64,000 nucleotides of DNA from Hydrotalea sp. (GTDB lineage: Bacteria > Pseudomonadota > Alphaproteobacteria > JASGCL01), in assembly GCA_030054115.1 (NCBI GenBank), contig JASGCL010000001.1:48788-112787 (forward strand), written 5' to 3'. The notes beneath the pieces are model-generated. The model was not told the origin of the DNA. It was given only the letters and a program-made list of their open reading frames with translations, and searched no databases. Position numbers and translations under genes: made by a program. Of this stretch, positions 8,272 to 47,657 are shown piece after piece (the stretch's first letter is position 1; the number at the start of each line of letters is the position of its first letter).

Positions 8272-9666
8272 TTAGGCGCGTTTAAAATTCGTTTTCTGCC
8301 AAAACCGCACTGCCAAAATCATGCCGACCAAAAACACACCAACAATAAAGCCCGCAATAATACCCATCGGGTGATGAAAAATATGAAAGCCAAAGATATA
8401 GGCCAGCGGCAGGCTAACCAACATATAACCAATGATGCTAACGATGCTTGAAAAGTTAAAATCACCAAGCCCGCGCAACGCCCCCAGCATGGTCGATTGC
8501 AACCCGTCAACCATCTGGCTGACCGCGCCAATCACCAAAAATCCGGCCGCCAGCGGAATGATAACATCTGCCAACGGCAAGCCCGCGCCAAAAAACGTGG
8601 CCACGCTGTTACCAACCAACAACAAAAACACCACCGACAACAGGGTTAAACAACTGACTATCATCAAGCTCGCCCCACCCGCGATGCGCAACCTTGAGAA
8701 TTGTTTTTTGCCAACAATGTCGGCTATCACAATGGTGGTGGCGTAGGTCATGCTGAGTGGTATCATGTAAAGCATTTCCAAAAAGCCATTGCTGATTTGT
8801 CTTGCCGCCAAGGCCTGAACCCCAAACCACCCAACCATAACGCCGAGCATGGCGTAGCTAACGACTTCAAAAAAACTTTCTATCGCAACGGGGATAGAAT
8901 TTTTTATAAAGTTCTTAATAATTTTTTTATCAAGCGGCGTTCGCAAAAACCATTTCGCCCCACCACCATTTTTTGTGCCATGATATTTTTTCATGCTGGG
9001 GTTTAAGAAGAAATACAAAAAAAATAATGCGTTAGATATCATGTCAGCCATCAACCACGCTATCCCCGCGCCAGCCAACCCAAGGGCGGGCAACCAATCC
9101 GCCACCCCAAAAATAAACCCATAGGCTAAGGGCAAGTTGACAACTATCATCGAAGAGTAAATCAACGTTGCCGTCCATGGTTTTTGCAACGCATCCAACG
9201 TTTGCTTTATCACGTAACCAGTCGCCCAAAAACCAATAGACAGCGACACCGTAATCCAATAACCAAAAACACCCGCCACAACCTCAATCGGTTGACCAAA
9301 TAACCGCAACAAAAAATAACAAGCAAACATCAACAGCCCAAACAATGACCCGGCGGTTATGGCCATGAAACAGCCGACGCGAACCACCTCCCCCACTTTT
9401 TTATATTGTTTACTGCCCGCCGCCTGGGCCACCATAATAACCAGGGGATTTAAAAAACCATAAACCGTGGCATAAAAAACCACCAAGAAAGTTGCTGTCA
9501 AGCCATAACCGGCCAATGGCACCGGCGAATCTAGTCGTGATAAAAAATAACTATCGGTTATGGCCAGTGCCGCCGTGGTCACCGATGATAAAATAATCGG
9601 TATGGCCAAGGCCGTAAGTTTTTTGCTATCCTTCAGCGTCTCGCGCCAAAAACTCTCTATTGTCAT
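8272..9666 (-). CDS. MATE family multidrug efflux transporter
   Basis: 464 aa with 12 predicted TM segments. N-terminal region typical of NorM/MATE (LALPIILSSVT...). Confidence 0.8.
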   Translation of the reverse strand: MTIESFWRETLKDSKKLTALAIPIILSSVTTAALAITDSYFLSRLDSPVPLAGYGLTATFLVVFYATVYGFLNPLVIMVAQAAGSKQYKKVGEVVRVGCFMAITAGSLFGLLMFACYFLLRLFGQPIEVVAGVFGYWITVSLSIGFWATGYVIKQTLDALQKPWTATLIYSSMIVVNLPLAYGFIFGVADWLPALGLAGAGIAWLMADMISNALFFLYFFLNPSMKKYHGTKNGGGAKWFLRTPLDKKIIKNFIKNSIPVAIESFFEVVSYAMLGVMVGWFGVQALAARQISNGFLEMLYMIPLSMTYATTIVIADIVGKKQFSRLRIAGGASLMIVSCLTLLSVVFLLLVGNSVATFFGAGLPLADVIIPLAAGFLVIGAVSQMVDGLQSTMLGALRGLGDFNFSSIVSIIGYMLVSLPLAYIFGFHIFHHPMGIIAGFIVGVFLVGMILAVRFWQKTNFKRA

Positions 9667-9700
9667 ATTTTTTTGCAGACTTTATGCTATAAAAAACACC

Positions 9701-10081
9701 ATGTCAATCTTTCGTGGAATCCTCAGCAACCCACTTGCCACCAGCCAGGGCATCATCCGCCGCGCCATGAAAAAAAATTTCAAATGGCCGAACGAAGCGG
9801 CGGTGTTGGAAAAATTGCAGGAGGAAATAAAGGAATTGCAGGCCGCGCTCAAAAATGGCGATAAAAAAAACCAACAGGAAGAGCTGGGCGATATTATCTT
9901 CACCGTGGTTTGCTTGAGCGAACAGATGAACCTGTCGGCGGAAAAAATCCTGGCACAGGCCAATCAAAAATTTAACCGCCGCTTTGCAAAAATGACGCGG
10001 CTTATCGCCCGCGATAAAAAATCGATGACCGCAATGTCGCCACAGCAATTGGAAGAATATTGGCAAAAAATCAAACATTAA
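9701..10081 (+). CDS. MazG-like nucleotide pyrophosphohydrolase (small all-alpha NTP-PPase)
   Basis: 126-aa product when started at the internal ATG at 9701. The ORF-track start at 9560 would overlap the divergent MATE gene. Contains the EExxE-type motif QEELGDIIFTVVCL characteristic of the MazG/NTP-PPase fold. Confidence 0.7.
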   Translation: MSIFRGILSNPLATSQGIIRRAMKKNFKWPNEAAVLEKLQEEIKELQAALKNGDKKNQQEELGDIIFTVVCLSEQMNLSAEKILAQANQKFNRRFAKMTRLIARDKKSMTAMSPQQLEEYWQKIKH

Positions 10082-10147: not shown

Positions 10148-12334
10148 ATGCAAGCCGACCAGCTCATTTCTTCGGTTAAAAATTATAACCCGAACATCAA
10201 CGAAAAATTGTTGGCCGCGGCCTATGATTTTTCCGTCGCCGCCCATAAAAACCAAAAACGCCATTCGGGGCGCGATTATTTTGAACATCCCTTGGCGGTG
10301 GCGCAACTCCTCACCGAAAAAAAAATGGACGATGCAACCATCATCACCGCCTTGTTGCACGACACGGTCGAGGACACAACCATCAAACTATCGCAAATCA
10401 AAAAACAATTTGGCGAGGAGGTTTCGTTTTTGGTCGATGGCCTGACCAAAATTGCCCATTTGGAGGAAAGCGAACGCGAGATAAAAGATTCCGAAAATTT
10501 ACGAAAACTTTTGCTCGCCAGCATCGGCGACATCCGCGTTTTGATTGTCAAATTGGCCGACCGATTGCACAACATGCGCACCCTGGCCGGCAAACAAAAC
10601 CCCGACAGCCGCGCGCGCATCGCCGAGCAAACATTAGAAATCTACGTGCCATTGGCCGAGCGCATCGGCCTAAAACGTTGGAGCGAGGAATTGGCGTCCT
10701 TGGCCTTTAAAGAGCTCCACCCGGTGAGCTACGAATTAATCGACAAGCGGTTAAATTTTCTATACCGCGAGCAAGATGTAAACGACATCACGCGCACGCT
10801 GGAGGAATTGTTAAAGATCGAAAAGATGGAGGGGGCGATAAAATTTCGCCTCAAAGACCATTGGTCGATTTATCAAAAAATGCAAAAGAAGCAACGTCAG
10901 ATGGAGGACCTGTCCGACATCATGGCTTTTCGCATCGTTGTCAACAACACGCGCGATTGTTATTTGTGTTTGTGGTTGTTGCACGAACGTTACAAAACCA
11001 TTCCGACCAAACTGAAAGATTATATTTCCTCGCCGAAAAGCAACGGCTACCAAAGCCTGCACACCGTTATCATCGGCCCGGGCGACAAAAGGATAGAGGT
11101 GCAGATTCGCACCCACGCGATGGATGATTTTGCCGAAAATGGTTTGGCGTCTCATTGGTTATACAAACATGAAGCCAATGGTAACGGCGGCCACAACGCC
11201 GATGTTAAAAACAAATACCAACGTTATCACGATTCCGCCTTGACCTGGCTCAAGGATTTTTTTACCGCCATCGAGGAGGAAAAATCTGACCAGCTAAGTT
11301 TTTTAGACAGCAGTCGCACCTTCCTCTACACCGACCGGATTTATGTCTCCTCGCCCAAGGGTGATTTTTACGAACTGCCGATTAATTCCCTGCCGCTCGA
11401 TTTTGCCTTCGCGGTGCATAGCCGAGTCGGCGAGCAATTTTCTCACGCCCTGGTCAATGGGCGGCAGGTTTCGTTCTACACCAATTTAAAAAATGGCGAC
11501 ACGGTCGAAATTATCACCAGCGATAAAAAAATTATGCCAGAACAAAACTGGCTCCATTGGTTGAAAACGGCGCGCGCCAAAACCTTTGTGACAAAAAAAT
11601 TGAAGGAGCGGAAGGAGCAAACCTACCTCGTCCAAGGCCAAGATTTGCTGAAAACCGAATTGTTGCGCTTGGGGTTGATGACGCCCGATGAAACCAACAA
11701 CGTGACGCTCAACCTAAAAAAAGTATATAAAAAATTTGGCGTGGCCAGCGACGAGCAATTATATCGCCTTATCGCCCTGTCGCAAATCAGCGCGCGTGAG
11801 GTTTTATTCGTCCTTTACCCCGAAATGAAACGCGTCACGATTTACCGCGCCCGGCAAAAGAAAGCAAAACAATCAGCCGCCGAGATTGTCGATATTCGCC
11901 ATTTCACCAAAGATGTCTCGCTAAAATTTGCCGAATGTTGCTACCCCCTGCCCGGCGACCAAATTGCCGGCGTTATTAACTTAGGGGAAGGGCTGACCCT
12001 GCATCGCTTGGGTTGTAAAAAACTTTTACCTTTTCAACATCACCCCGACCGGATGATAGCGGTGCACTGGCAAAAAAAATCGGCGCATCAGGAAATCTTC
12101 ACCTCGCGTTTATTATTAAGTTTAAAAAATCGCCCGGGCGCGCTGAACCTGGTGACCGATGTCTTGACCAAAACCGGTAGCAACATCGCCAACGTTCTTT
12201 TTAAACTGCGCACCAAGGACCATGTTGAAATTATTTTAGACATCGAGGTATTCGGCCTGCGCCAAGTCAAAGAAATTATTGAAAAAATAAAATCAGCTGG
12301 TAAAGAAATGGTGCTTGAGATAAAACGCGCTTAA
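10148..12334 (+). CDS. spoT: Bifunctional (p)ppGpp synthetase/hydrolase (Rel/SpoT homolog)
   Basis: 728 aa with N-terminal HD hydrolase domain (HDTVEDT), synthetase domain, TGS and ACT-like C-terminal domains. Confidence 0.95.
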   Translation: MQADQLISSVKNYNPNINEKLLAAAYDFSVAAHKNQKRHSGRDYFEHPLAVAQLLTEKKMDDATIITALLHDTVEDTTIKLSQIKKQFGEEVSFLVDGLTKIAHLEESEREIKDSENLRKLLLASIGDIRVLIVKLADRLHNMRTLAGKQNPDSRARIAEQTLEIYVPLAERIGLKRWSEELASLAFKELHPVSYELIDKRLNFLYREQDVNDITRTLEELLKIEKMEGAIKFRLKDHWSIYQKMQKKQRQMEDLSDIMAFRIVVNNTRDCYLCLWLLHERYKTIPTKLKDYISSPKSNGYQSLHTVIIGPGDKRIEVQIRTHAMDDFAENGLASHWLYKHEANGNGGHNADVKNKYQRYHDSALTWLKDFFTAIEEEKSDQLSFLDSSRTFLYTDRIYVSSPKGDFYELPINSLPLDFAFAVHSRVGEQFSHALVNGRQVSFYTNLKNGDTVEIITSDKKIMPEQNWLHWLKTARAKTFVTKKLKERKEQTYLVQGQDLLKTELLRLGLMTPDETNNVTLNLKKVYKKFGVASDEQLYRLIALSQISAREVLFVLYPEMKRVTIYRARQKKAKQSAAEIVDIRHFTKDVSLKFAECCYPLPGDQIAGVINLGEGLTLHRLGCKKLLPFQHHPDRMIAVHWQKKSAHQEIFTSRLLLSLKNRPGALNLVTDVLTKTGSNIANVLFKLRTKDHVEIILDIEVFGLRQVKEIIEKIKSAGKEMVLEIKRA

Positions 12335-16211: not shown

Positions 16212-16787
16212 GTGCAACAAGCAACGAGTGGTAGTAATATGCAAAATAAAAAAATTTATAGCGTAATTTTTTACATAATAAAAACGTGCCAAGATAAAAA
16301 CTATAAGCTTGGCGCAGTTCGACTCAATAAAATTATTTGGAATTCCGATATTTCTTATCTTAAAGAAAATGGGCGCACAATCACGGAAGAAAAATATGCC
16401 AAGCGCCAATATGGCCCAGTGGTGTTCTCTATGCCTTCTTATATTCGAGAGTTGACACTAAACGGATATATAGACTTTGCTAATAAAATTAGCAATTATG
16501 GAGAAAATGAATATAAAATGACTCTGTACTCTGTCAAAAATAATTTTACAGTAAGCTTATCGAGTAATGAGAAACAAATTATAGATAATTTTATAAATAA
16601 AATATGCAATCAAACTGCTCAAGAAGCAAGTGACGATACTCATGATAATGTCTATGAGCTTACTCCCGATGGTGAAGAAATGCCGTTGGGAGCTTATCTA
16701 TTTGCTGAACCTGCGCCTATAGATGAAAAAGATATAACAGAAGCAAAAAGAACTATTGAACAACTTTCTATAAAATCTAATGCCTAG
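16212..16787 (+). CDS. Panacea (DUF4065)-domain protein, putative type II antitoxin (PanA/SocA-like)
   Basis: 191 aa, AT-rich codon usage. The segment LGAVRLNKIIWNSDISYLKENGRTITEEKYAKRQYGPV resembles the Panacea-domain core (KLxKLLYxAD ... GPV). Its stop overlaps the next ORF by 8 nt. Confidence 0.5.
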   Translation: MQQATSGSNMQNKKIYSVIFYIIKTCQDKNYKLGAVRLNKIIWNSDISYLKENGRTITEEKYAKRQYGPVVFSMPSYIRELTLNGYIDFANKISNYGENEYKMTLYSVKNNFTVSLSSNEKQIIDNFINKICNQTAQEASDDTHDNVYELTPDGEEMPLGAYLFAEPAPIDEKDITEAKRTIEQLSIKSNA

Positions 16788-17064
16788 ATATAAAGTAGAA
16801 TTGTCAGAAAATGCAAAATCTCAATATAATGAGATGCAGCAAGATACTGACCTTCTAAAATTTTTCAATCTCTTGATAGAAAAATTATTGGTGATGCCAA
16901 CTGACGGCGCAACGCCTCTCCGAGCGAATGGAATTCCATATTTCTTATACAAAACTAACCCAAAAATTTGTAAGATAAGTATATTATTTCATGTAGATAA
17001 TAGTAAAAATATTGTGATAATTGAAAACGTTTCTACATACGACGAAAGCCAAGTAGCTTTTTAA
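16780..17064 (+). CDS. RelE/ParE-superfamily-like toxin
   Basis: 94 aa. The N-terminus YKVELSENAKSQYNEM and C-terminal I.ILFHVDNSKNIVIIENV resemble the ParE/RelE pattern (YkIefs.kA.kdl.kl ... yRiiY.id.....i.ilri). It is translationally coupled to the upstream Panacea ORF. Confidence 0.45.
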   Translation: MPRYKVELSENAKSQYNEMQQDTDLLKFFNLLIEKLLVMPTDGATPLRANGIPYFLYKTNPKICKISILFHVDNSKNIVIIENVSTYDESQVAF

Positions 17065-23833: not shown

Positions 23834-24637
23834 ATGAAAGAAATTAAAATGGCGCAACATCCTAAAAGACTTAAAATTTTGCCGCTGGTTGATGCCGTAT
23901 TTGAAATAAGGTTCAGGCATCCCTTTAAAGCTTATCAGGCAATCGTTGGGACTATTTATAACAATGTTGATTCAGAATATAAAAACAAAGAAATTATTAA
24001 CACCAACGAATCTGTGTTGCCAAAGCCCGTGAGGGATTCTCAGCCCCAATTCGAATACGCAATGTTAAATATAATCTCCCTAGATGGAATTTTTATTGGA
24101 GTGGGAGAGAAAGCACTTAACCTGGTTGCTAAATATCCTTATCCAGGTTGGGACGTTTTTAAGCAGAAAATTTTTAAAGTGTTAGATATTCTACAAGAGG
24201 GCACAGACGACACCTCTATAAATCGCTTCAGTTTAAAATACATTGATGTTATAGATAATAGCAGATTAATTAACCCTAGCAATCACTTGGACTCTTTAAA
24301 AATACAATTAAATATATTAGAGCAAAACTACCAAAAAGATATTTTCCATTTTATAATTACCACAAAAGATGAAAAAAATCATGCTATAAGTACTATACTT
24401 AATTTATCAGCACCAGCTGAGGTTAAAATTAATGGCGAAGCAACATATGAAGCAACCAATGGTATTAGAATTGACATAGATGTTATAAAAAATGTTGAAG
24501 AAGACCTAACCATACGCTCTCTATTAACAACAATAAAAAATCAGGACTCAGTTCTAGATGAAATGCATATAAAGGTTAAAAATTTATTCTTTAATATATT
24601 GGACGCAAAAGTAATAAAGAATCATGATCCCGAGTAA
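23834..24637 (+). CDS. Hypothetical protein, TIGR04255-like N-terminus
   Basis: 267 aa, strongly AT-rich codons. N-terminal LPLVDAVFEIRF resembles the conserved start of TIGR04255-family proteins. No catalytic motif recognised. Confidence 0.55.
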   Translation: MKEIKMAQHPKRLKILPLVDAVFEIRFRHPFKAYQAIVGTIYNNVDSEYKNKEIINTNESVLPKPVRDSQPQFEYAMLNIISLDGIFIGVGEKALNLVAKYPYPGWDVFKQKIFKVLDILQEGTDDTSINRFSLKYIDVIDNSRLINPSNHLDSLKIQLNILEQNYQKDIFHFIITTKDEKNHAISTILNLSAPAEVKINGEATYEATNGIRIDIDVIKNVEEDLTIRSLLTTIKNQDSVLDEMHIKVKNLFFNILDAKVIKNHDPE

Positions 24638-24646
24638 GTTTTAAAA

Positions 24647-25204
24647 ATGACATACGCTTTGCCCCTGCCCCTGTCTTCTTTCAATAATTTGGAGAAGTCT
24701 GCTACGCCATTAAATTTATTTAATGGTCTAAAACAATCGGAGAGATTTAATTACATTTCACGCCAATCTGGCCGTCAAATGAGTATTATCAAATCTATTT
24801 TAAATATAGATGATAACAACTCATATTATAACGCTAATATTAAATTTGAAATAGAAAAAAAGATTGCACAAGCTATTCAGAGGACACGAGAAGAGGATGA
24901 AAAAATCAGACCAAATGCAACATCCCAAACGAACCTGTTGGCATTTCTTTCTACTGGTAATTTTGATTTGCCATCAGTTTTTTTACTTGAAAATGGTGTA
25001 TTCCAAATAGTTTGGTCTAAAGGGGCGGGAGAAAGAATAGAAGTTCAATTTCTAGAAGATGGCTTCATAGAGCTAGCGGCGATTATTAAAGAAGGAAATA
25101 AAAATGTTCCTAGATATTTTGTATATCAAGAGAAAGAAAACGTTATTAGACAAATTAAAAATGATAGATTAGACAGAATCATCAATGAAAAAAAACATAC
25201 CTGA
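24647..25204 (+). CDS. Hypothetical protein (orphan ORF 2 of the cassette)
   Basis: 185 aa. Begins 10 nt after ORF1 on the same strand with AT-rich composition. No recognisable domain. Confidence 0.5.
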   Translation: MTYALPLPLSSFNNLEKSATPLNLFNGLKQSERFNYISRQSGRQMSIIKSILNIDDNNSYYNANIKFEIEKKIAQAIQRTREEDEKIRPNATSQTNLLAFLSTGNFDLPSVFLLENGVFQIVWSKGAGERIEVQFLEDGFIELAAIIKEGNKNVPRYFVYQEKENVIRQIKNDRLDRIINEKKHT

Positions 25205-25619
25205 TAATGATAATGTGCTTCGTCATATTAAAGGCTCTTGGCTAGATGCTGAGAAAAATACTGTTACGTCTGAGGCGTTTATGCTAAGAGAGCACGAACA
25301 AGGTATATCTGTAAACTGGCTAGAGCATGATATAATCAAATATCCGAATACAAAATCTCAGATTAATTTTATCAGAGGTTCTATCAATCTAGAATTAAAA
25401 AAAAGCCATCGTTTTCTAAAATTGAATGTTGGTAAAACCAAAAATATAATAAAAGAAAAAATAAAAAAAACTATTATTATAGAACACCAACCGAATAAGC
25501 ATGATAATTCTCATTCTTGCATTGCTATAGAAAAAAATAAAATTATTAATAAGTTAATAGCGCTATGCATTGTAGAAGAATTTGGGAAAAAGGATAATCT
25601 TATCGATGCCGCATCCTAA
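25185..25619 (+). CDS. Hypothetical protein (orphan ORF 3 of the cassette)
   Basis: 144 aa, overlaps ORF2 by 20 nt, very Lys/Ile/Asn-rich. The N-terminal HIKGSWLD ... ISVNWLEH block has no confident family assignment. Confidence 0.5.
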   Translation: MKKNIPDNDNVLRHIKGSWLDAEKNTVTSEAFMLREHEQGISVNWLEHDIIKYPNTKSQINFIRGSINLELKKSHRFLKLNVGKTKNIIKEKIKKTIIIEHQPNKHDNSHSCIAIEKNKIINKLIALCIVEEFGKKDNLIDAAS

Positions 25620-30431: not shown

Positions 30432-31070
30432 GTGTCTTTATTTGATAATTTAAATCCTGCTAGTTTTCTAAAATCCTTGTTAGATAACAAGGACGCTGTG
30501 TTTTTCATCATGGCTTTTATTCTGCCGGGTTTTATTTGCGTTAAGTTTTATGAAATTTTGACTGGCCAAAAACGAACTGACGCTAGCCAATTTAGAATGG
30601 ATTTTTTTGCTTACAGCTTAATAAATAATTTTTTTGCTTTGCTATTGGATATAACAATTAATCATTTTCTTGCGTCAAAAACAGATATTGTTAGCTACCT
30701 GCTCTATTTCTTATATTTTGTCATCTTGCCAATTTGTTTAACTTATATCCTTTATTTATCTAGGAAAGCTAACTGGTCTATATGGTTGTTTCAGCATCCT
30801 GATGCTTATGCCTGGGACCATGCCTTTAAGAATGCTAAAAATGGATGTTTTGTCATCGTAACTTTAAACGATGGTAAAAAATATGCTGGGAAATATATTA
30901 GCAAACCACAAGAGAAAAAAACATCCTTTGCCGCCTCTGGTTATTTAGCAAAAGACATATACCTTGCCGAACAATGGGAGTTAAATAAAAATGCCAGCTT
31001 TAAGAAAAAAACTAATCAAACTGGCGGAATATATTTATCAGACATTAAGACTATTGAATTTTTTGAGTAA
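30432..31070 (+). CDS. Hypothetical membrane protein (N-terminal multi-TM region, C-terminal soluble domain)
   Basis: 212 aa, AT-rich. Three to four hydrophobic helices in residues 20-110, then a soluble C-terminal part (CFVIVTLNDGKKYAGKYIS ... GGIYLSDIKTIEFFE). No family recognised. Confidence 0.55.
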   Translation: MSLFDNLNPASFLKSLLDNKDAVFFIMAFILPGFICVKFYEILTGQKRTDASQFRMDFFAYSLINNFFALLLDITINHFLASKTDIVSYLLYFLYFVILPICLTYILYLSRKANWSIWLFQHPDAYAWDHAFKNAKNGCFVIVTLNDGKKYAGKYISKPQEKKTSFAASGYLAKDIYLAEQWELNKNASFKKKTNQTGGIYLSDIKTIEFFE

Positions 31071-33797: not shown

Positions 33798-34508
33798 ATG
33801 AAAAAGCATTTTAAGCAAGCTTTATTTTTAGCTGGTGGTCTGTTTGTATTACTAGCGGGTGACAATGGCCTTTATATAACCCAAGCGCAGGCGCAAGCGA
33901 ACAATGCGGGTAACAGATTCTTCATCAGCGCCGCGCCACAATTTTCATACAGCAATTTTATTGGTATCGGCTGGGGTGGTGGTGTATCGCTGGGCACGAC
34001 CAACGACCGTCGTACCGACGCCTTTAATGTCGATTACCAAAACATGTCGCAAACCTTTGACGCTGGCGGCGACATCAGCAATTTATTAAAAAGCATTCCC
34101 GGGGTTAACCTCAACGTGGACGCCAACGCCAGCGCGACCATGAAAACCCAATTTGCCGCCATAACCTATGATTACGTTGCCAAATTGGAATATGACCAGT
34201 TTGTTGGCTTGATTGGCACCGGCGCAGGGATTGAGGGTTGGATTCTGCACGTAACCGCCGCCGCCGTGGCCAATGCCACGGCCACCGTGTCGGGCGGTGG
34301 GCAAACCCAAACCCAAACCCAATCACAATCAAGCGGCACCGATAAGGAAGTAATCCTTGGCGGGTTATTATTGACGCCGCGCATTGGTTTTGAATGGAAC
34401 GCCACCGATTTATTAGCCCTTGGCATGAACATACGTGGCTTTATCGATTTGCCGGCATTTCCCCTGTCGCGCGGCACGATCGACGTAACGGCAAAATTAA
34501 CATTCTAA
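33798..34508 (+). CDS. Secreted/outer-membrane beta-barrel-like protein, paralog A
   Basis: 236 aa with signal peptide. Gly-rich alternating pattern and a C-terminal Phe, as in OMP beta-barrels. Paralogous to the next gene (IGIGWGGGVSLGTTNDRRTDAFNVDY vs LGIGVGGGISIGLDSGDKTDAGNIDF, and LLTPRIGFEW vs LLTPRVGVEW). Confidence 0.5.
   Translation: MKKHFKQALFLAGGLFVLLAGDNGLYITQAQAQANNAGNRFFISAAPQFSYSNFIGIGWGGGVSLGTTNDRRTDAFNVDYQNMSQTFDAGGDISNLLKSIPGVNLNVDANASATMKTQFAAITYDYVAKLEYDQFVGLIGTGAGIEGWILHVTAAAVANATATVSGGGQTQTQTQSQSSGTDKEVILGGLLLTPRIGFEWNATDLLALGMNIRGFIDLPAFPLSRGTIDVTAKLTF
34302..34331. repeat. In-frame hexanucleotide microsatellite (CAAACC)x3 followed by (CAATCA)x2 inside paralog A
   Basis: caaacccaaacccaaacccaatcacaatca encodes QTQTQTQSQS in a predicted surface loop. 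Confidence 0.6.
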
Positions 34509-34518
34509 AAAAAACATC

Positions 34519-35310
34519 ATGGGCATTAAAACAAAAAAATCTTCCTTCACAACCATTGCGGCCATAGGCCTGTTTGGCATGCTGGCCGGCCTGGCGACCC
34601 GCACCGCGCCGGCAATGGCGGCAGACGACAACGACACAGCAATAACATTGCCAACGGGCAAAAATATCGACTTCAGATGGGTGGACATTAGTGATGATTA
34701 TACTGATGATTATAACAGCGCCAGCCAAAAGCAACCCATCGCCGTTAACAACGCCCGTGCAAATGTGCCATTTACCGTTATCGAACCAACTGTGACCTTT
34801 GGCATGTTGGGCATTGGCGTCGGCGGGGGTATTTCTATCGGCCTGGATTCCGGTGACAAAACCGATGCCGGCAATATCGATTTTCACTATTTGTCGGTCA
34901 CCAACGAAAAGCTTAACCAATTTATTACCGCCGTTAAAGACGCCTATGGCCTGACGTCGTTGGGTCACGTGCCCGCCGCCGCCTCCTTTACCATGTTAAA
35001 CATACCGGTGACATATGATTGGACGGCAAAATTTGGTGGCAACCTCAAACTATTGGTGGGCTCTGGCGTTGGGCTTGACCTTTTCATTTTTTACCCCAAG
35101 GTTGATACCGGCGTTGGCGCGGCCAACGATGCCATATCGAAACTAAACATACCGATTATACCAGAATTTTTATTGACACCACGGGTTGGCGTTGAATGGA
35201 CTATCGACGATGGGTTAGCGATTGGTCTGGACGCACGTGCCTTTGTTGACTTGCCGGCCTATCAACTTTCGCGCATCGCAGTTGATGGTTTGGTGAAGTT
35301 TATATTCTAA
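34519..35310 (+). CDS. Secreted/outer-membrane beta-barrel-like protein, paralog B
   Basis: 263 aa with signal peptide and C-terminal ...VKFIF. Tandem duplicate of the upstream gene, 10-nt spacing. Confidence 0.5.
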   Translation: MGIKTKKSSFTTIAAIGLFGMLAGLATRTAPAMAADDNDTAITLPTGKNIDFRWVDISDDYTDDYNSASQKQPIAVNNARANVPFTVIEPTVTFGMLGIGVGGGISIGLDSGDKTDAGNIDFHYLSVTNEKLNQFITAVKDAYGLTSLGHVPAAASFTMLNIPVTYDWTAKFGGNLKLLVGSGVGLDLFIFYPKVDTGVGAANDAISKLNIPIIPEFLLTPRVGVEWTIDDGLAIGLDARAFVDLPAYQLSRIAVDGLVKFIF

Positions 35311-35360: not shown

Positions 35361-37976
35361 TTAACGCAATGAAATATGGCCGAAGCTTGGCTTGCCAGGT
35401 GCTGGTGATGGTTGCGCTGTTTGTTGCGTCGTTGCTTGTGCCGGGCGCGCGCCGGCTTGCGGTGGCTGTTGCGGCGCCATTGCTTGGGGCGCGCCACCGC
35501 CCATCATCTGTGCCAGCTGTCCCATCATCTGTGCCGGCATTCCACCCGGCATACCGCCAGCGGGCATCATCATGCCGGCGGGCATTCCACCCGGTGTGCC
35601 CGCGCCGCCCTGTTGTTGTTTGGTTTGTTGTTGCAAATACATCGGCAATATTTTTTCGGTTTCAGCCATTGCCACCATCTTGCCATCCTGCATCACCATC
35701 ATCATGTCGGCCACCGACAATAATTTGGTGTTGTGGGTGATGAAAATCACGGTGCGGCCGGCTTGCTTCAGGGCGGTAATGGCGTTCAGCAGGGCGACTT
35801 CGCCCGCGGTATCAAGGTTCGAATTGGGTTCATCCATCACGATAACCGCCGGGTCGGTATAAAGCGCGCGCGCCAGGGCGATTTTCTGCCTTTGCCCGGC
35901 GGATAATTTTACACCATCGATACCGATATCGGTTTCATAATTTTTATCCAACCGCATGATAATCTCGTGGCAATTGGCTAGCTCGGCCATTGCCACCACC
36001 CGTTCCATGTCGGGGGTTTGAAAACGGGCGATGTTTTCGGCGACCGACCCTTCAAACAATTCGACCGTTTGTGGAACATAACCAATAAAATTCGGCCGGT
36101 CGTTGGGGTTTAAATTATTAATATCGGCACCATCGATACGAACAAAACCGCGCATCGGTCGCCACACGCCACACAAAAATTGGGCAAAGGTGGTTTTTCC
36201 CGCGCCCGATGGCCCGACCACCGCCGTCACCGTGCCGGGCATAAATTGCGCGCTGATGCCTTGGATAATGGGGCGGGTTGCGCCGGGGGGCGAACCAACC
36301 AATTCCTCGACCGCGACGATTCCTTTCGGCCGGGGCAGGCGCAATTCGTTGTCGATGTTCGGCGGGAATTGGCTGAGCATTGTGCTGAGGCGCAGGTAAG
36401 CAAACCGCGCGGTTGAAAATGACCGCCAGCCGCCAATCGCCATATCCACCGGTTGCAAAACCTTGCCAACAATAATCGAACAGGCGACAATCAACCCGGG
36501 GCTTAATTGGTCGGTCAAGACAAGGTAGCTCGCCAAACCCAAAACCAACGATTGCAACAATTGCCGCAACGACCGCGACAGGGTGGACAGGGTCGCCACC
36601 GTGTCCTGCGCCTTGGTCATTAAATTAACCGTCGGTTCATAATTTTCGCGCCATTTTTTTTGCATCGACCGCATCATGCCCATTGCCTGCAACACGTCGG
36701 TGTTGCGCAATGATGTTTCGATAAATTGCGATGCCTGGTTTGAATAGGTTGCCGAATTGCGGAAGGGGGTTTTGGAGGCAACCTCGGTCATGACCGCCAA
36801 GATAAAAACCAACACCATGCCGACCAGGGCAAAAATACCCATGACAGTATTGATATAAAACAATATGCCCAAAAACATAAATGCCCATGGCGTGTCGTAA
36901 ATCACAAATATCAGGGGCGAGGTGATGAACATTCGCACCTGTTCCATATCGCGCACCGCGCCCGACCCGACCGGCCGGTTGCGCATTAGGTTATTAAGGA
37001 ACGCCGATTCAAAAACACTATCCTGCATCGCAAAGTTGATATAGGCACCGATGCGCCCCATGATTTTTAGGCGAATCGCCTCGAGCATCGATTGAAACCC
37101 CATCAAAAAAATGGCGATGGCGGTCATCGACACCAGCGTGCTGGTGTTGGCCGACCCGAGGACGCGGTTATAAATTTGCATCATAAAAATCGGCGGCACC
37201 AGCATCAAGACATTAATAAACACCGAAAAAAACCCGATGGTTATCAAGGTCGAGCGATAATAGCTGATAAGTTGCCTTATCGGGTCGCGTTTCCATTGCA
37301 CCGATTGGCGAATATGTTTTGCCGACAGCACAAAATTGCCGTCGCTGGTGATTTCGGGTCGCGGTCTTTTATTGAGGAAAATATCCTTCAAAAAATTCCA
37401 CAGCGATTCCACATCGGCCCCCGCGCCATCCCCTGCTGACGCCTTACCATTTGGCCGTTGCCCGCGCGGCCGCGCGGTGTTTTGCCTCGGCGGTTGTTGC
37501 GCGCTTGCTTGGTAATTTTGTTGTGGATTTTGTTGATAAGATGTTTGACCACCGCCATCGGTTGCGGGTGGCGGTTCGGTGGTTGTGCCTGGCGTAATAC
37601 CTTGATTGGCGACCTGCGCCATTTGCGTCATGGCCTGGGCAACGGCTTGCTCCATGGTTCGTTCGGGCAATGGTTGCGGTGCGAATGATTGCGGTTGAGA
37701 TTGCATCGGTGGTGTTTGCGGCCGCGCACCATTACCATTGCTTACTGGTCGCCTTATCGGGCGTCTCATCGGTTGTCTTATGGTGGGGCGGGGTGGCCTG
37801 GGAGATTGCGCCGGCATGGTTGCCATGGCCGGCCGTTCGGCGGTTGATTGCATTGGCGGCTGACCTTGTGGACGGGCTTGCGGGCGACCGCGGTATTGAC
37901 CTTGCGGGCGCGGCCTCATCCCCGGTCGCGATGGTCGCGGGCGAAATTGGTTTGGTCGTGGGGGTTGCTGGGCCAT
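35361..37976 (-). CDS. Type I secretion system permease/ATPase (PrtD/HlyB-like, no C39 peptidase domain) with long low-complexity N- and C-terminal extensions
   Basis: 871 aa. The central 560 aa are a typical T1SS ABC exporter (6-TM domain, Walker A GPSGAGKT, signature LSAGQRQ, Walker B VIVMDEP). About 200 aa of P/Q/R/G-rich sequence precede the first TM. About 100 aa of Q/G/M/P-rich sequence follow the nucleotide-binding domain. Confidence 0.8.
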   Translation of the reverse strand: MAQQPPRPNQFRPRPSRPGMRPRPQGQYRGRPQARPQGQPPMQSTAERPAMATMPAQSPRPPRPTIRQPMRRPIRRPVSNGNGARPQTPPMQSQPQSFAPQPLPERTMEQAVAQAMTQMAQVANQGITPGTTTEPPPATDGGGQTSYQQNPQQNYQASAQQPPRQNTARPRGQRPNGKASAGDGAGADVESLWNFLKDIFLNKRPRPEITSDGNFVLSAKHIRQSVQWKRDPIRQLISYYRSTLITIGFFSVFINVLMLVPPIFMMQIYNRVLGSANTSTLVSMTAIAIFLMGFQSMLEAIRLKIMGRIGAYINFAMQDSVFESAFLNNLMRNRPVGSGAVRDMEQVRMFITSPLIFVIYDTPWAFMFLGILFYINTVMGIFALVGMVLVFILAVMTEVASKTPFRNSATYSNQASQFIETSLRNTDVLQAMGMMRSMQKKWRENYEPTVNLMTKAQDTVATLSTLSRSLRQLLQSLVLGLASYLVLTDQLSPGLIVACSIIVGKVLQPVDMAIGGWRSFSTARFAYLRLSTMLSQFPPNIDNELRLPRPKGIVAVEELVGSPPGATRPIIQGISAQFMPGTVTAVVGPSGAGKTTFAQFLCGVWRPMRGFVRIDGADINNLNPNDRPNFIGYVPQTVELFEGSVAENIARFQTPDMERVVAMAELANCHEIIMRLDKNYETDIGIDGVKLSAGQRQKIALARALYTDPAVIVMDEPNSNLDTAGEVALLNAITALKQAGRTVIFITHNTKLLSVADMMMVMQDGKMVAMAETEKILPMYLQQQTKQQQGGAGTPGGMPAGMMMPAGGMPGGMPAQMMGQLAQMMGGGAPQAMAPQQPPQAGARPAQATTQQTAQPSPAPGKPSFGHISLR

Positions 37977-38112
37977 GGTAAAAATGCAAGGTGGGACAAG
38001 AGCAGGGTATTTACCTGTCTTTTATGCAAATTAAGACTTTTTTATGATAATTGCAACTGCCAAGAAAGGCAGGGGGTATTTTATATTTTTTACTAGCAAT
38101 TCTTCCCTACTC

Positions 38113-38141
38113 TTGACTATTTAAGGAAATGCTACTATTAT
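38113..38141 (+). promoter_or_regulatory. Putative sigma70 promoter for the DUF262/DUF1524 gene
   Basis: TTGACT - 17 nt - TATTAT, about 22 nt upstream of the ATG at 38164. Confidence 0.4.
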
Positions 38142-38163
38142 ATCATCATAGATAGCATAAAAG

Positions 38164-39912
38164 ATGACTCAAGCTACATCCACTGACAGAATTAGAAAAA
38201 ATCTTTTTATCCCTACTAATATTTCTATTGGAGATATGTTGGGTAATGGCAAAAAATATATTGTGCCAAAATACCAACGGAATTACTCATGGGAGCAAGA
38301 ACAATGGCAAGAGTTATGGGATGATATAAAAAAATGCTATGAAGATGAAAATTATTATCACTTCTTAGGAAATATTGTTTTATCAGAACAAATCGGTAGA
38401 AAAGAGTTTGAAATTATTGATGGCCAACAACGACTGGCTAGCATAAGCATCGTTGCCATTGTCTTAATAGATTTCTTACAGCAACTTGTTAATGAGAGCA
38501 TCAGCAAGGACGAGAATCAAAAACGCGTTTCTTATTATAAAGAAAGATTAATTTCAAGCACCGATGGCACGACCCTTTACTCCTATCCAAAGTTACAACT
38601 TAATAAAAACAACAATGACTACTATAAAGATTACTTAAGCCAAATAAATATTGTTAGACCTTCCGATAATAATTCTAAGCCGCTTTATGACTCCATAATT
38701 TTTTTTAAAAAGCGGCTAAATGAAGACTATCCTAATGTCATTAAGGATGGCGAACAGATATCAAAAATACTAGAGTCAATAATCGACAAGTTATTTTTAA
38801 TACAAATCACCGTTGCTAATGAGAATGACGCCTACATTCTTTTTGAATGTTTAAATGCACGTGGCTTAGACCTTTCCCCCGCTGATTTAATTAAAAATTA
38901 TATTTTCTCTCAAATAAGAACCCCTCACGATGCTGACATCATTTCATCAAAATGGCAAGAGCTTGAAGGTATTACTAAAGCGAATAAACTTGCTTCTTTT
39001 ATAAGGTATTTTCATAATTGTACTGAAGCCGGGGTTATTAAAGAAAAGCAATTATTTTTAGAATTACAAAACATTATTAAAGAAACTTATCACGGCAATA
39101 TAGATAAATTTATTAACCAGCTTATAGAATATGCAAAGATTTATAGAGCCTTAAAAAATTATACTGATGATGAATGGCATAAGGAGGGGGGGCAAGATAT
39201 TAAAAACGCAGTTAGGGTATTAACTGATTTAGGGGTGCAACAACCTCTAATTGTTCTGATGCCTGCATATCAAAAATTCAAAACAAGGGATTTTATTCAA
39301 ACCATAAAATATCTTTCAATTGTAGCAATAAGATACAATATTGTCTGCCATAAAAATCCTAACGCGCAAGAAAGCCTGTATAATAAAATTGCCATAGACA
39401 TCCATGCTGGCAAAATAAAAGGATCTTCGGATATAAAGGACAGAGTCATAAAAGGGGGAATATATCCAAATGATAATGAATTTAAGGCAAGCTTTCAGAC
39501 CTTGTCTATAACGAAAACTAAGGTCATTATATATTTTTTAAAAGAATTAGAAAATTATATTTCTGGCAACAATCGGGGCACGGCTGATACTGCAGGCACT
39601 ATAGAGCATATATTGCCTGAAAGCTGGAACGAAAATTGGGCTGATTTCTTTGATACAAAGCAACATGAGGAGTATTATAAAAAGTTTGGTAACTATTGTC
39701 TCTTAGAGGCAGAGATTAATAGTTCAAACGAAATGGCTGATATAAAAACATTTTCAGAAAAAAAAGCAGGCTATAAGAAATCAAATTATGCTCTAGCGAA
39801 GCAGTTATTAAAATATGACGAATGGAATGAAGATTCTATTAATACTCGTCAAGAAAATTTAGCCGAGCAAGCAATAAAAATTTGGTCGTTTGATAATATT
39901 GATAATCTATAA
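38164..39912 (+). CDS. DUF262 + DUF1524 fusion protein (GmrSD / BrxU-like modification-dependent nuclease; putative type IV restriction/defence)
   Basis: 582 aa, AT-rich. The N-terminus has the DUF262 (ParB/Srx-like NTPase) signature IDGQQRL. The C-terminus has a DUF1524 His-Me finger-like block IEHILPESW ... GNYCLLEAEINSS. Confidence 0.75.
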   Translation: MTQATSTDRIRKNLFIPTNISIGDMLGNGKKYIVPKYQRNYSWEQEQWQELWDDIKKCYEDENYYHFLGNIVLSEQIGRKEFEIIDGQQRLASISIVAIVLIDFLQQLVNESISKDENQKRVSYYKERLISSTDGTTLYSYPKLQLNKNNNDYYKDYLSQINIVRPSDNNSKPLYDSIIFFKKRLNEDYPNVIKDGEQISKILESIIDKLFLIQITVANENDAYILFECLNARGLDLSPADLIKNYIFSQIRTPHDADIISSKWQELEGITKANKLASFIRYFHNCTEAGVIKEKQLFLELQNIIKETYHGNIDKFINQLIEYAKIYRALKNYTDDEWHKEGGQDIKNAVRVLTDLGVQQPLIVLMPAYQKFKTRDFIQTIKYLSIVAIRYNIVCHKNPNAQESLYNKIAIDIHAGKIKGSSDIKDRVIKGGIYPNDNEFKASFQTLSITKTKVIIYFLKELENYISGNNRGTADTAGTIEHILPESWNENWADFFDTKQHEEYYKKFGNYCLLEAEINSSNEMADIKTFSEKKAGYKKSNYALAKQLLKYDEWNEDSINTRQENLAEQAIKIWSFDNIDNL

Positions 39913-39919
39913 TCAACCG

Positions 39920-40732
39920 CTAGGCCGTTGCCAGCATTTTTTTGATTTCGCCAATCGCCTTCGCCGGGTTTAACCCCTTGGGGCAGGCCGAGGTGCAATT
40001 CATAATCGTGTGGCAACGATAAACCTTAAAAGCACCCTGCAATTGATCCAATCGTTCTTGTTTTGCGTCGTCGCGGCTGTCGGCCAAAAACCGATAGGCC
40101 TGCAACAAAATCGCCGGGCCCAAATATTCATCTTGCTTTTCGTCTTGGTTTTTAAGGTCGCTCTTATCGCCGTTCCACCAATAGCTGGGGCAAGATGTGG
40201 CGCAGGCAAAACACAAAATACATTCGATAGAACCATCCAACTTTTCGCGTTGCGCCGGTGTTTGCAACGATTCGCGTTGGCCGGTGTGGTAACCATCGTT
40301 TTTATCGTTACCGGTTTTTTGCGCCTCGCTATCGTTTCTTTTTAACCATGGTTCGATAGATGCCAATTGGCGATAGGGCGTCGACAGGTCGGGCACCAAA
40401 TCCTTCAACACCGGCAAATGGGGCAAGGGCGCGATGGTGATGGTATCACCCATGTCCTTATCGGCCAGCGACTTGGTGCAGGCCAAACCATTTTTACCAT
40501 TCATGTTCATGGCGCAGGAGCCGCAAATCCCCTCTCTGCATGACCGGCGAAAGCTCAGGCTGGAATCGATGGTGTTTTTAATCGCCAGCAAACTATCCAG
40601 CACCATGCTACCGGCGGTTTCTGCGTCTAACATAAATTCTTGCCAATAGGGTTTGCTGTCGGTCGCCGGGTCGTAGCGATAGACGCGAATTTTTTTGCTG
40701 GCTGGGGTTAAGGTCATGTTATTTATTTTCAA
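39920..40732 (-). CDS. sdhB: Succinate dehydrogenase iron-sulfur subunit
   Basis: 270 aa with 2Fe-2S, 4Fe-4S and 3Fe-4S cysteine clusters ([36 protein letters not shown]). Confidence 0.95.
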
Positions 40733-46549: not shown

Positions 46550-46909
46550 TTATTTATTTTTTCTATAACGATTGGATCGAATAATTAACAATGGCACCCC
46601 TATTAATAACAATAAAAATACCACGTCTCTTTCAAACCAAGACCATGCAATCACCACGGCATAAAAAATAACCACGCTAGTGACATTTATTCCTATATCT
46701 CTTGCTCTAGCACTCCAGACCATTGCCATAGATACAATAGCTACTACATATAATATTAAGTAACTATTATAACTGATTTCTTCATTTTGATTAAGCAATG
46801 CAAGGAAGAAAAATAACACAACATAAGATACAAAATATCCTACCCTAGCCATTCTCAACGAAGTGAAAAATGAAACGATAAATTGCAAAAATGATTTTTG
46901 TTTTTTCAT
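46550..46909 (-). CDS. Small inner-membrane protein, DUF805-like
   Basis: 119 aa, AT-rich. Three to four TM segments, with SARARDIG resembling the DUF805 R.HDxGxSGW core. Weak assignment. Confidence 0.35.
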   Translation of the reverse strand: MKKQKSFLQFIVSFFTSLRMARVGYFVSYVVLFFFLALLNQNEEISYNSYLILYVVAIVSMAMVWSARARDIGINVTSVVIFYAVVIAWSWFERDVVFLLLLIGVPLLIIRSNRYRKNK

Positions 46910-46946
46910 TTATAATTTCTTAAAAAATAATATATTTTTATTCCTT

Positions 46947-47657
46947 TTAAAAACTATAGCTTGCCCCCAGTCCGAAGCTATAATAAAATATATCAGAATC
47001 ATTATCGCTGGTTGTTTTATTACTTGTCGTCGTTCCTGAGGTAAAACCAGAAACTCTATCTACGTCATAAGGAGCAGACCTTATCAACCCAGCAAAATCA
47101 TTGGCCAATGTCAACTGAAACGACGGCGTTACGGAATAATTAAGGTCAAACGTGCCACCGACTATCGGATGAGTGCTACTTTCTTTTATATAATACTCAG
47201 CAAAGTTACTCCTCCTCCCCGTTATAACCTCCGTATAAAAAGCCACTCCCGCGTACACCCCGCTCGACAGAGATAATTTATCTGTTAGTCTTATCTTGAG
47301 GGCGTTTGTGCCTATAACCAAAGGAACGTAAGACACATAACTTGTGCTGTTATATAGGCCAATATTTTCTAAACTATTTTTCCCAAGATATGTTAACGCA
47401 TCGCCACTATAGTTAAAACCCGTGCCAATATAGATATAATCTTTATAGCCGACAGAAGCTTTGAATCCCCCCATTATCACATCGCATTTTGACAAAAGGC
47501 CAGAACAACCACCCTCAGCAACAACAACGCCAACGCCAACTTGAGGAGTAATGGATAGTTTTAATCCTATTTCAGCTTTAGCATTTTTGGGTACAAACCC
47601 AACCATGCCAAACACAGCCAAAACCATAGCGAAAGTTAGTAATACTCTTTTTATCAT
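46947..47657 (-). CDS. Outer-membrane beta-barrel protein
   Basis: 236 aa with signal peptide. Alternating hydrophobic pattern and a C-terminal ...GLGASYSF with terminal Phe. AT-rich. Confidence 0.55.
   Translation of the reverse strand: MIKRVLLTFAMVLAVFGMVGFVPKNAKAEIGLKLSITPQVGVGVVVAEGGCSGLLSKCDVIMGGFKASVGYKDYIYIGTGFNYSGDALTYLGKNSLENIGLYNSTSYVSYVPLVIGTNALKIRLTDKLSLSSGVYAGVAFYTEVITGRRSNFAEYYIKESSTHPIVGGTFDLNYSVTPSFQLTLANDFAGLIRSAPYDVDRVSGFTSGTTTSNKTTSDNDSDIFYYSFGLGASYSF

Follow-up and report, generated by a model that had tools for sequence, protein, structure and literature searches.

Does a gene that encodes a DUF262 and a DUF1524 domain in a single polypeptide, and that stands alone between two core genes, specify a modification-dependent (type IV) restriction enzyme? 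This question is raised by a 64,000-nucleotide (nt) stretch of contig JASGCL010000001.1 (positions 48,788 to 112,787; assembly GCA_030054115.1, labelled Hydrotalea sp.), which was analyzed as a whole and is called the window here. In it, a 582-amino-acid (aa) open reading frame (ORF), referred to below as the nuclease, lies in an AT-rich islet between sdhB and a gene for an ABC permease/ATPase of a type I secretion system (T1SS). GmrSD and BrxU, which have this domain composition, act on modified DNA, and the related SspE and DndI spare self DNA through the phosphorothioate mark set by SspABCD or DndBCDE and attack the unmarked invader. Because the DUF262-DUF1524 scaffold is used in these two opposite ways, the key contextual test is whether modification genes are present or absent.

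The original prediction, made from the sequence alone, had described the nuclease as a standalone, horizontally acquired GmrSD/BrxU-like type IV restriction gene. Judged by all of its defining sequence-level features, the protein belongs to the GmrSD superfamily and, within it, to the HEC-06 family of PADLOC. It is very probably a functional defence nuclease of this family that was acquired horizontally. That it forms a self-contained, one-gene anti-phage cassette of the HEC-06 branch with modification-dependent (type IV) action is, in our assessment, a probable reading, held with less assurance than the former.

Domain architecture and catalytic residues

The gene and its predicted domains and motifs are located as follows (positions of the window).

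38164..39912, plus strand: putative HEC-06-type GmrSD-family NTPase-nuclease gene, ORF of 582 aa, activity predicted from sequence
38227..38907, plus strand: N-terminal DUF262/GmrSD_N domain (ParB-like NTPase), residues 22-248
38908..39462, plus strand: all-helical linker or middle domain, residues ~249-433
39463..39867, plus strand: C-terminal DUF1524/GmrSD_C His-Me-finger nuclease domain, residues 434-568
38419..38433, plus strand: DGQQR motif for hydrolysis of nucleoside triphosphates (NTP), D86-R90, invariant in 31 of 31 homologs
39604..39609, plus strand: catalytic E481-H482 (in TIEHILP), invariant in 31 of 31 homologs
39688..39720, plus strand: G509-N510...N519, with the His-Me-finger Asn residues for metal and DNA binding; G509 and N510 invariant, N519 conserved in at least 90%

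No second ORF of at least 60 aa was found inside 38164..39912 on either strand. Both domains were recognized by their Pfam hidden Markov models far above the gathering cut-offs: PF03235 (GmrSD_N) scored 123 bits against a cut-off of 33.2, with positions 1-199 of the 199 in the profile covered, and PF07510 (GmrSD_C) scored 93.2 bits against 23, with 1-137 of 138 covered. All motifs quoted in the original prediction were located in this single ORF, i.e. IDGQQRL at residues 85-91 (nt 38416-38436) in the DUF262 part, as well as IEHILPESW at residues 480-488 (nt 39601-39627) and GNYCLLEAEINSS at residues 509-521 (nt 39688-39726) in the C-terminal DUF1524 part.

Residue conservation was read from an alignment of 31 homologs. 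D86-G87-Q88-Q89-R90, E481, H482, G509 and N510 were invariant, so that the catalytic histidine and metal residues of DUF1524, the absence of which had been named as evidence against a nuclease, are in place. A model built with AlphaFold2 (AF2) on the same alignment (pLDDT 88, pTM 0.72) has an N-terminal alpha/beta domain followed by a long helical middle domain, with helices at residues 254-430 as assigned by DSSP. In this model, the DGQQR motif is placed where the strand 81-86 meets the helix 88-110. The core at the C-terminus, beta(478-482)-beta(511-515)-alpha(516-520), holds H482, N510 and N519 and corresponds to a His-Me finger.

The ORF is full length and spans 96-98% of family members. 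More than 5,000 relatives were retrieved from the protein database at E ≤ 1e-5. One of these is identical and labelled as a metagenome-assembled genome ('MAG: Hydrotalea sp.', NCBI), one is 61% identical, and all others share at most 38% of their residues with the nuclease. No NCBIfam model matched the protein. A match to phrog_21165 in PHROGs (E 1e-113; function not known there) indicates that the family occurs in (pro)phages too.

Placement in the HEC-06 family

The PADLOC search that had been proposed as a check returned HEC-06 as the best match over the full length of the protein (PDLC04154, 540.8 bits, E 9.7e-163; residues 12-577 aligned to positions 4-567 of the 569-position profile), and three more HEC-06 models matched as well. 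The runner-up models are labelled 'Orf5' (PDLC02686-02702, up to 470 bits); one of them, PDLC02701 (596 positions), covers the same residues of the nuclease as does the 596-aa DndI. Weaker matches were obtained to mREase_IV (E 4e-21) and to SspE (E 1e-18, residues ~15-130 only). The nuclease is a further, divergent member of an already known defence family, and an otherwise ordinary defence gene.

The tested HEC-06 is the Hma-embedded candidate 06 of Escherichia coli MOD1-EC1687 (WP_096851903.1), one of two 'GmrSD-like' candidates embedded in Hma systems, and it protects E. coli from phages (Payne et al., bioRxiv 10.1101/2024.01.29.577857). In E. coli K-12 it works by itself, without added dnd genes. 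Its sequence was taken from Table S2 of that paper, and the gene in full length was drawn from a complete E. coli genome in which the 5′ 399 nt are identical. The two proteins align collinearly over 579 columns with 31% identity and 54% positives (E 1e-91; L174:9001-10680) and share a three-part architecture, a similar length (560 versus 582 aa) and the DGQQR and EH(I)xP motifs. In this alignment, DGQQR falls onto HEC-06 D76-R80, and E481-H482 (TIEHILP) onto E471-H472 (TLEHICP). Each of the substitutions Q79A, R80A, E471A and H472A abolishes phage defence by HEC-06 (bioRxiv 10.1101/2024.01.29.577857), and all four of these defence-essential residues are kept in the nuclease (Q89, R90, E481 and H482). 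A difference was noted at HEC-06 S46, which corresponds to D53 in the nuclease; mutating S46 had no effect in HEC-06.

HEC-06 suffices for defence as a single gene, and it too is found solitary. Unlike the context in which HEC-06 was discovered, the nuclease gene lies outside Hma, restriction-modification (RM) or bacteriophage exclusion (BREX) systems, between core metabolic and secretion genes of an alphaproteobacterium. Since the tested HEC-06 gene is also solitary in an E. coli prophage, embedding in Hma (or in RM type I or BREX) is not a requirement. That prophage is Rac-like (intR-xisR-recET ... sieB ... DUF262) and resides in E. coli S3 (L174, NZ_CP010228.1 2006331-2008013), where the gene is located outside Hma. 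Of 5,426 complete E. coli genomes, 30 carry a gene whose first 399 nt are at least 99% like those of the tested HEC-06.

Comparison with DndI, SspE, GmrSD and BrxU

The nearest relative of solved structure is DndI of Salmonella enterica Cerro 87 (9JFL), both by sequence (E 2.9e-21 with the single sequence; E 7.6e-55 over the full length with the family profile) and by fold (Foldseek TM 0.67-0.70, E 4e-19). DndI has the DGQQR motif (D83-R87) and the EH...GN...N nuclease motif in common with the nuclease, N519 being aligned with DndI N541, and the middle region is collinear between the nuclease, HEC-06 and DndI. DndI, an ATPase-nickase, lets go of self DNA on meeting phosphorothioate; its R87A variant has no ATPase activity, and N541A loses nicking and defence (PMC11662687). 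The identity between the nuclease and DndI (19-20%) is below that to HEC-06.

Next among the sequence matches in the Protein Data Bank (PDB) were 20yv (20yv/20yw, an 818-aa DUF262 protein, profile E 1.5e-21) and then SspE. The best Foldseek matches in the PDB were all GmrSD-like defence nucleases, namely DndI, SspE (E 8e-15) and BrxU (E 1.4e-5, TM 0.35). For BrxU (7P9K), no sequence match was obtained at E ≤ 1 with either the single protein or the family profile. Also, its nucleotide-binding motif RLFDS is not in the nuclease, where residues 48-56 read WQELWDDIK; HEC-06 likewise lacks RLFDS (bioRxiv 10.1101/2024.01.29.577857). From the predicted GmrSD/BrxU likeness, membership in the GmrSD superfamily can be retained, but the protein is specifically of the HEC-06 type, with DndI as its nearest structure and BrxU a distant relative.

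Several features are nevertheless common to these enzymes. GmrSD and BrxU have the same pair of Pfam domains in the same order, the DGQQR motif and a (D/E)H His-Me motif; both are single-polypeptide enzymes that occur alone or embedded, and the same logic, cutting of modified phage DNA, is proposed here. BrxU sits in BREX, whereas the nuclease has no Brx or Pgl matches in the window. SspE (6JIV/7DRS) combines DUF262 including DGQQR with a DUF1524-type C-terminal nuclease, as the nuclease does, but it is longer (~770 versus 582 aa), the likeness is concentrated in the N-terminal ~120 residues, and SspE needs SspABCD, of which no partner was found in the window. DndI, in turn, depends on the adjoining IscS-DndBCDE, whereas the nuclease has no dnd genes in the window or near four of its homologs. 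Judged by context or close similarity, the nuclease is not BrxU or SspE, and probably not DndI.

Solitary context of the gene

The PADLOC scan for partner genes covered the 44 backbone ORFs and the 8 ORFs of other AT-rich islets in the 64-kb window. None of these ORFs was recognized by a model for Dnd, Ssp, Brx, Pgl, Hma, DISARM or a methyltransferase, and no helicase, methylase or ATPase was found in the window that could serve the nuclease as a defence partner. Matches to mad3, mad8, AriA, AbiLi, ATPase-Toprim and PDC-S33 (not assigned to individual ORFs) are most likely generic cross-matches of the ATPase type. Four homologs on long contigs were solitary as well and located amid housekeeping genes: (i) P0044 (dnaA, dnaE), (ii) P0041 (near ku/ligD), (iii) P0004 (gyrA-coaD) and (iv) P0036 (Spirulina). 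Neither dnd nor ssp genes occur within ±10 kb of these four; an unrelated RM-like gene lies within a few kb of two of them. The description of the nuclease as standalone, with no brx or ssp partner, therefore holds for the 64 kb and for the four homologs.

These results bear on the possibility that the nuclease is a phosphorothioate-sensing effector like DndI or SspE, with self-protection provided by dndBCDE or sspABCD elsewhere in the genome. The ranking of DndI as the nearest solved relative by sequence and fold, followed by SspE, speaks in favor of this possibility, and so do the scores of up to 470 bits on the 'Orf5' models, one of which is matched just as DndI is. So does the alignment of DndI Y25, which senses phosphorothioate (PMC11662687), with Y37 of the nuclease; but position 37 belongs to the family motif (F/Y)QR, in which Y or F is the rule, and the correspondence does not discriminate. 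DndI is encoded beside dndBCDE and damages its host when phosphorothioation is missing (PMC11662687), whereas the nuclease is gained or lost as a single-gene cassette between near-identical backbones, as set out below. Furthermore, no dnd or ssp model matched in the window or in the surroundings of the four homologs, and the nuclease is closer to HEC-06, which works without dnd genes (31%, compared with ~20% for DndI). We consider a phosphorothioate-sensing effector distinctly unlikely.

Acquisition of a one-gene cassette downstream of sdhB

The cassette and the core genes that bound it are located as follows.

38065..39925, no strand assigned: acquired AT-rich one-gene cassette of ~1.86 kb, each boundary ±5-10 nt
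39920..40732, minus strand: sdhB (Fer2_3 and Fer4 domains), core gene at one edge of the hotspot and convergent with the nuclease gene
35361..37976, minus strand: T1SS PrtD-type ABC permease/ATPase gene, core gene bounding the hotspot (TIGR01842, 622 bits versus a cut-off of 510)

The neighbours are those named in the original prediction, which had also pointed to the markedly AT-rich composition of the nuclease gene compared with sdhB. The GC content and the GC content at third codon positions were 0.32 and 0.29 for the nuclease gene, 0.50 and 0.62 for sdhB, and 0.55 and 0.62 for the ABC gene, in a backbone of ~0.52. Along the sequence, GC content fell from ~0.55-0.60 in the 5′ part of the ABC gene to 0.31-0.33 over the nuclease ORF and was ~0.50 in sdhB. 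The stop codons of the nuclease gene and sdhB are 7 nt apart.

Relatives of SdhB in the protein database at 85%, 83% and 73% identity are encoded at three loci (L172, L171 and L173, respectively) that keep the gene order of the window, gatA-gatB-lysS-glnA-like-aminotransferase-sdhCDAB. Two of these loci are empty sites, in which the T1SS ABC gene directly follows sdhB: L171 (SdhB 83%, ABC 87%) and L173 (73%, 80%). No trace of the nuclease gene was detected in either of them by tblastn. The third locus, L172, has other AT-rich cargo at the same site (10781-11820, GC 0.28-0.35), consisting of an ORF of 67 aa and a gene for a ClpP-like SDH-type serine protease (PF01972, 52 bits), which is cut off where the contig ends.

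A further locus, the 1.9-kb contig L170, carries an intact allele (P0002) that is 61% identical to the nuclease. The two cassettes are 67% identical in nucleotides, a level at which synonymous sites are saturated. The 3′ flank of P0002 is the tail of sdhB (GEIKKMLVAG-stop), and the flanks of L170 are the same as those of L171, with 30 of 30 nt matching on the ABC side and 28 of 28 nt on the sdhB side. Between these identical anchors, L171 has 58 nt and L170 the cassette of ~1.85 kb. This difference may reflect gain in L170 or loss in L171.

In the window, backbone homology to L171 stops at 39931 on the sdhB side; on the ABC side, it resumes in the spacer, up to ~38060 (..ATAATTGCAACTGC), and then within the ABC gene from 37419. 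The segment from 37977 to ~38065 is the native AT-rich spacer between sdhB and the ABC gene and is also present in the empty site L171. The gene lies inside the interval predicted for the islet (37990-39915), but the first ~90 nt, counted from 37977, belong to this native spacer and not to the cassette, which begins at ~38065 and ends at ~39925. The ends of sdhB differ between loci, reading VAEQ-stop in L171 (10770-10800), VAG-stop in L170 (1856-1908) and ATA-stop in the window (39913-39931). It seems that the insertion altered the final two or three codons of this core gene, along with its stop.

Presence, absence and replacement in relatives, together with the base-precise junctions of L170 and L171, directly show horizontal acquisition into a variable sdhB/T1SS site, as had been proposed. 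The junction downstream of sdhB behaves as a hotspot with exchangeable cargo. Loci found with SdhB in genome and metagenome scans were also considered as empty sites and rejected, as their identity was at most 60% and gene order was not conserved; none of the 160 loci from these scans had a GmrSD or ABC homolog.

A repeat search around the cassette detected no target-site duplication, flanking direct repeats or terminal inverted repeats. There is no tRNA or tmRNA gene or Rfam family in the window, and no mobility gene flanks the cassette. Given these results, insertion mediated by an integrase, a transposon or a tRNA gene is unsupported. Exchange of the cassette by homologous recombination through the flanking core genes would be the simplest route.

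Proposed mechanism and specificity

Under the preferred reading, i.e. a modification-dependent one-gene cassette, the gene would be transcribed from its own sigma-70-like promoter. The protein, probably a dimer by analogy with BrxU, SspE and DndI, would bind and hydrolyze NTP through the DGQQR motif of its ParB-like DUF262 domain, which would serve as a DNA-sensing switch. The helical middle domain would relay this control to the His-Me-finger nuclease (E481/H482, N510, N519), and the latter would nick or cut invading DNA. The host would be spared if the enzyme acted only on phage DNA with a modification that the host lacks, e.g. hypermodified cytosines. We infer nuclease and NTPase activity, dimerization, anti-phage function in the host and, above all, modification-dependence.

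A candidate for the promoter was present upstream of the gene.

38113..38141, plus strand: promoter-like element TTGACT-17 nt-TATTAT, 10 of 12 consensus matches, ending 23 nt before the ATG

In the L170 cassette, TCTTGACTATTTAA and TAT(T/C)AT are kept at the same 17-nt spacing, in upstream DNA that is otherwise unrelated. The conserved -35 and -10 elements can be read as a phylogenetic footprint of a putative sigma-70-like promoter. The promoter-like element of the original prediction is thus present and conserved in L170, but a generic scan did not raise it above chance, and the call gains its weight from conservation in L170 alone. The generic promoter/terminator scan revealed no convincing terminator.

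The conserved promoter also bears on the possibility that the gene is an inactive relic or serves a non-defence function, be it housekeeping or regulatory. No strong Shine-Dalgarno sequence precedes the ATG of the nuclease, which would fit a relic. On the other hand, the ORF has its full length and has lost none of the invariant family residues, and L170 has, at this very site, an allele that is intact at 61% identity and has kept the promoter. A housekeeping role is opposed by the absence of the gene from close relatives, which shows it to be dispensable. We regard a relic or non-defence gene as highly improbable.

With regard to specificity, the gene spreads and is kept with no modification partner at hand, and HEC-06 needs no other gene in E. 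coli K-12; modification-dependence would therefore be the likeliest way to spare the host. HEC-06 was reported to block T4, and its homolog HEC-06Bact gives protection from T-even phages but none from T4-GT7, which is unmodified (PMC12366544). By analogy, these in-vivo results, together with the solo context, suggest type IV specificity for the nuclease.

Six points weigh against a modification-dependent cassette with its own promoter: (i) promoter matches of this quality are not above chance in such AT-rich DNA (12 found versus 8.9 ± 3.2 in shuffled sequences); (ii) the search for partners spans 64 kb of the genome, and a distant modification partner is possible; (iii) modification-dependence of HEC-06-type enzymes was shown in vivo and not biochemically (PMC12366544); (iv) transfer of specificity across the family is weak, since the nuclease and HEC-06Bact are only 31% and 22% identical to HEC-06, respectively; (v) the closest solved relative, DndI, attacks phosphorothioate-free DNA and needs protection by DndBCDE (PMC11662687); and (vi) the proposed substrate specificity draws no support from the computation presented here.

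Possibly, the nuclease responds to a trigger other than DNA modification, such as a phage protein, a DNA structure or replication intermediate, or a change in the nucleotide pool, with the NTPase gating a non-specific nickase. The architecture and the catalytic residues fit this explanation equally well. The HEC-06 preprint does not tie phage range to DNA modification and describes a quaternary structure distinct from those of BrxU and SspE (bioRxiv 10.1101/2024.01.29.577857), and DndI and SspE illustrate that the scaffold can be governed by cues other than base hypermodification. However, in the sole specificity test of a HEC-06-type enzyme, protection by HEC-06Bact was lost on T4-GT7, whose cytosines are unmodified. 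Also, the simplest account of a lone nuclease without an immunity gene is that it depends on a mark missing from the host. A non-modification trigger is, in our view, rather unlikely.

Neighbouring genes, other islets and taxonomic label

The T1SS ABC protein has a Pro/Gln/Arg-rich low-complexity N-terminal extension of ~230 aa (37290-37976, minus strand) and a Gly/Met/Pro/Gln-rich C-terminal tail (35361-35650, minus strand) around the TIGR01842 core (residues 237-776). The low-complexity N-terminal coding sequence is similar in L171 and L173, and one gene caller placed the start later, resulting in a protein of 781 aa. Just downstream of the ABC gene, on the opposite strand, are two tandem paralogous genes (33798-35310) for proteins of 236 and 263 aa, which are 29-32% identical to each other. 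Both have hydrophobic, signal-peptide-like N-termini and are without a match in Pfam or NCBIfam.

The backbone of ~0.52 is interrupted by another four AT-rich islets (GC 0.29-0.33).

16212-17064: SocA/Panacea antitoxin-like 191-aa protein and a 94-aa ORF
23834-25619: set of three genes, for a 267-aa protein of the TIGR04255 family and for ORFs of 185 and 144 aa, the latter weakly matching AbiEii
30432-31070: DUF6338 protein
46550-47657: ORFs of 119 and 236 aa with no family, the latter at 46947-47657 (GC 0.40)

The last of these islets, between the glnA-like gene and lysS, was not found in L171, L172 or L173 by tblastn; the equivalent gaps comprise 79-190 nt (L171 4157-4347, L172 4217-4328, L173 3594-3673). 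As it is missing from three syntenic relatives, it represents a further insertion specific to the lineage, the second within the same 12 kb. In L173, an unannotated gene for a 247-aa protein (9189-9932) lies between sdhA and sdhB and interrupts the sdh operon. The genome seems to be peppered with small foreign cassettes resembling toxin-antitoxin or defence genes.

At NCBI, the proteins identical to the nuclease and SdhB of the window (P0001 and P0121) are labelled 'MAG: Hydrotalea sp.', a name belonging to the Bacteroidota, whereas the backbone is alphaproteobacterial. The best matches of SdhB in species-level collections are from Alphaproteobacteria (at most 60% identity), and among the syntenic relatives that have a taxon label, the closest is an 'Alphaproteobacteria bacterium'. 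Probably, the 'Hydrotalea sp.' genome was mis-binned or mis-named and comes from a poorly sampled lineage.

Implications

A broader reading joins some of these observations. HEC-06-type enzymes, being nearer to DndI and SspE than to GmrSD and BrxU, may fall outside the classical type IV (base-modification-dependent) enzymes altogether and be partner-less, NTP-gated nickases with an undescribed cue for self and non-self; separately, the sdhB/T1SS junction and the other islets may reflect an uncharacterized route for exchanging defence cassettes, each a gene with its promoter, at intergenic sites, which would involve no integrase, repeats or tRNA and would even alter the final codons of a core gene. 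We consider this quite unlikely.

The combination of DUF262 and DUF1524 alone does not fix the mechanism, which may be modification-dependent (as in GmrSD and BrxU) or modification-inhibited (as in DndI and SspE). As the scaffold serves both directions, annotation pipelines should not equate DUF262 plus DUF1524 with type IV restriction. The locus itself is a natural case, and an unusually clean one, of a minimal defence cassette, in which a promoter and a single gene are present, absent or replaced at one intergenic hotspot. If the preferred reading of a modification-dependent HEC-06-type cassette is true, a divergent alphaproteobacterial member would join a family so far validated only with proteins from E. 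coli and Bacteroides.

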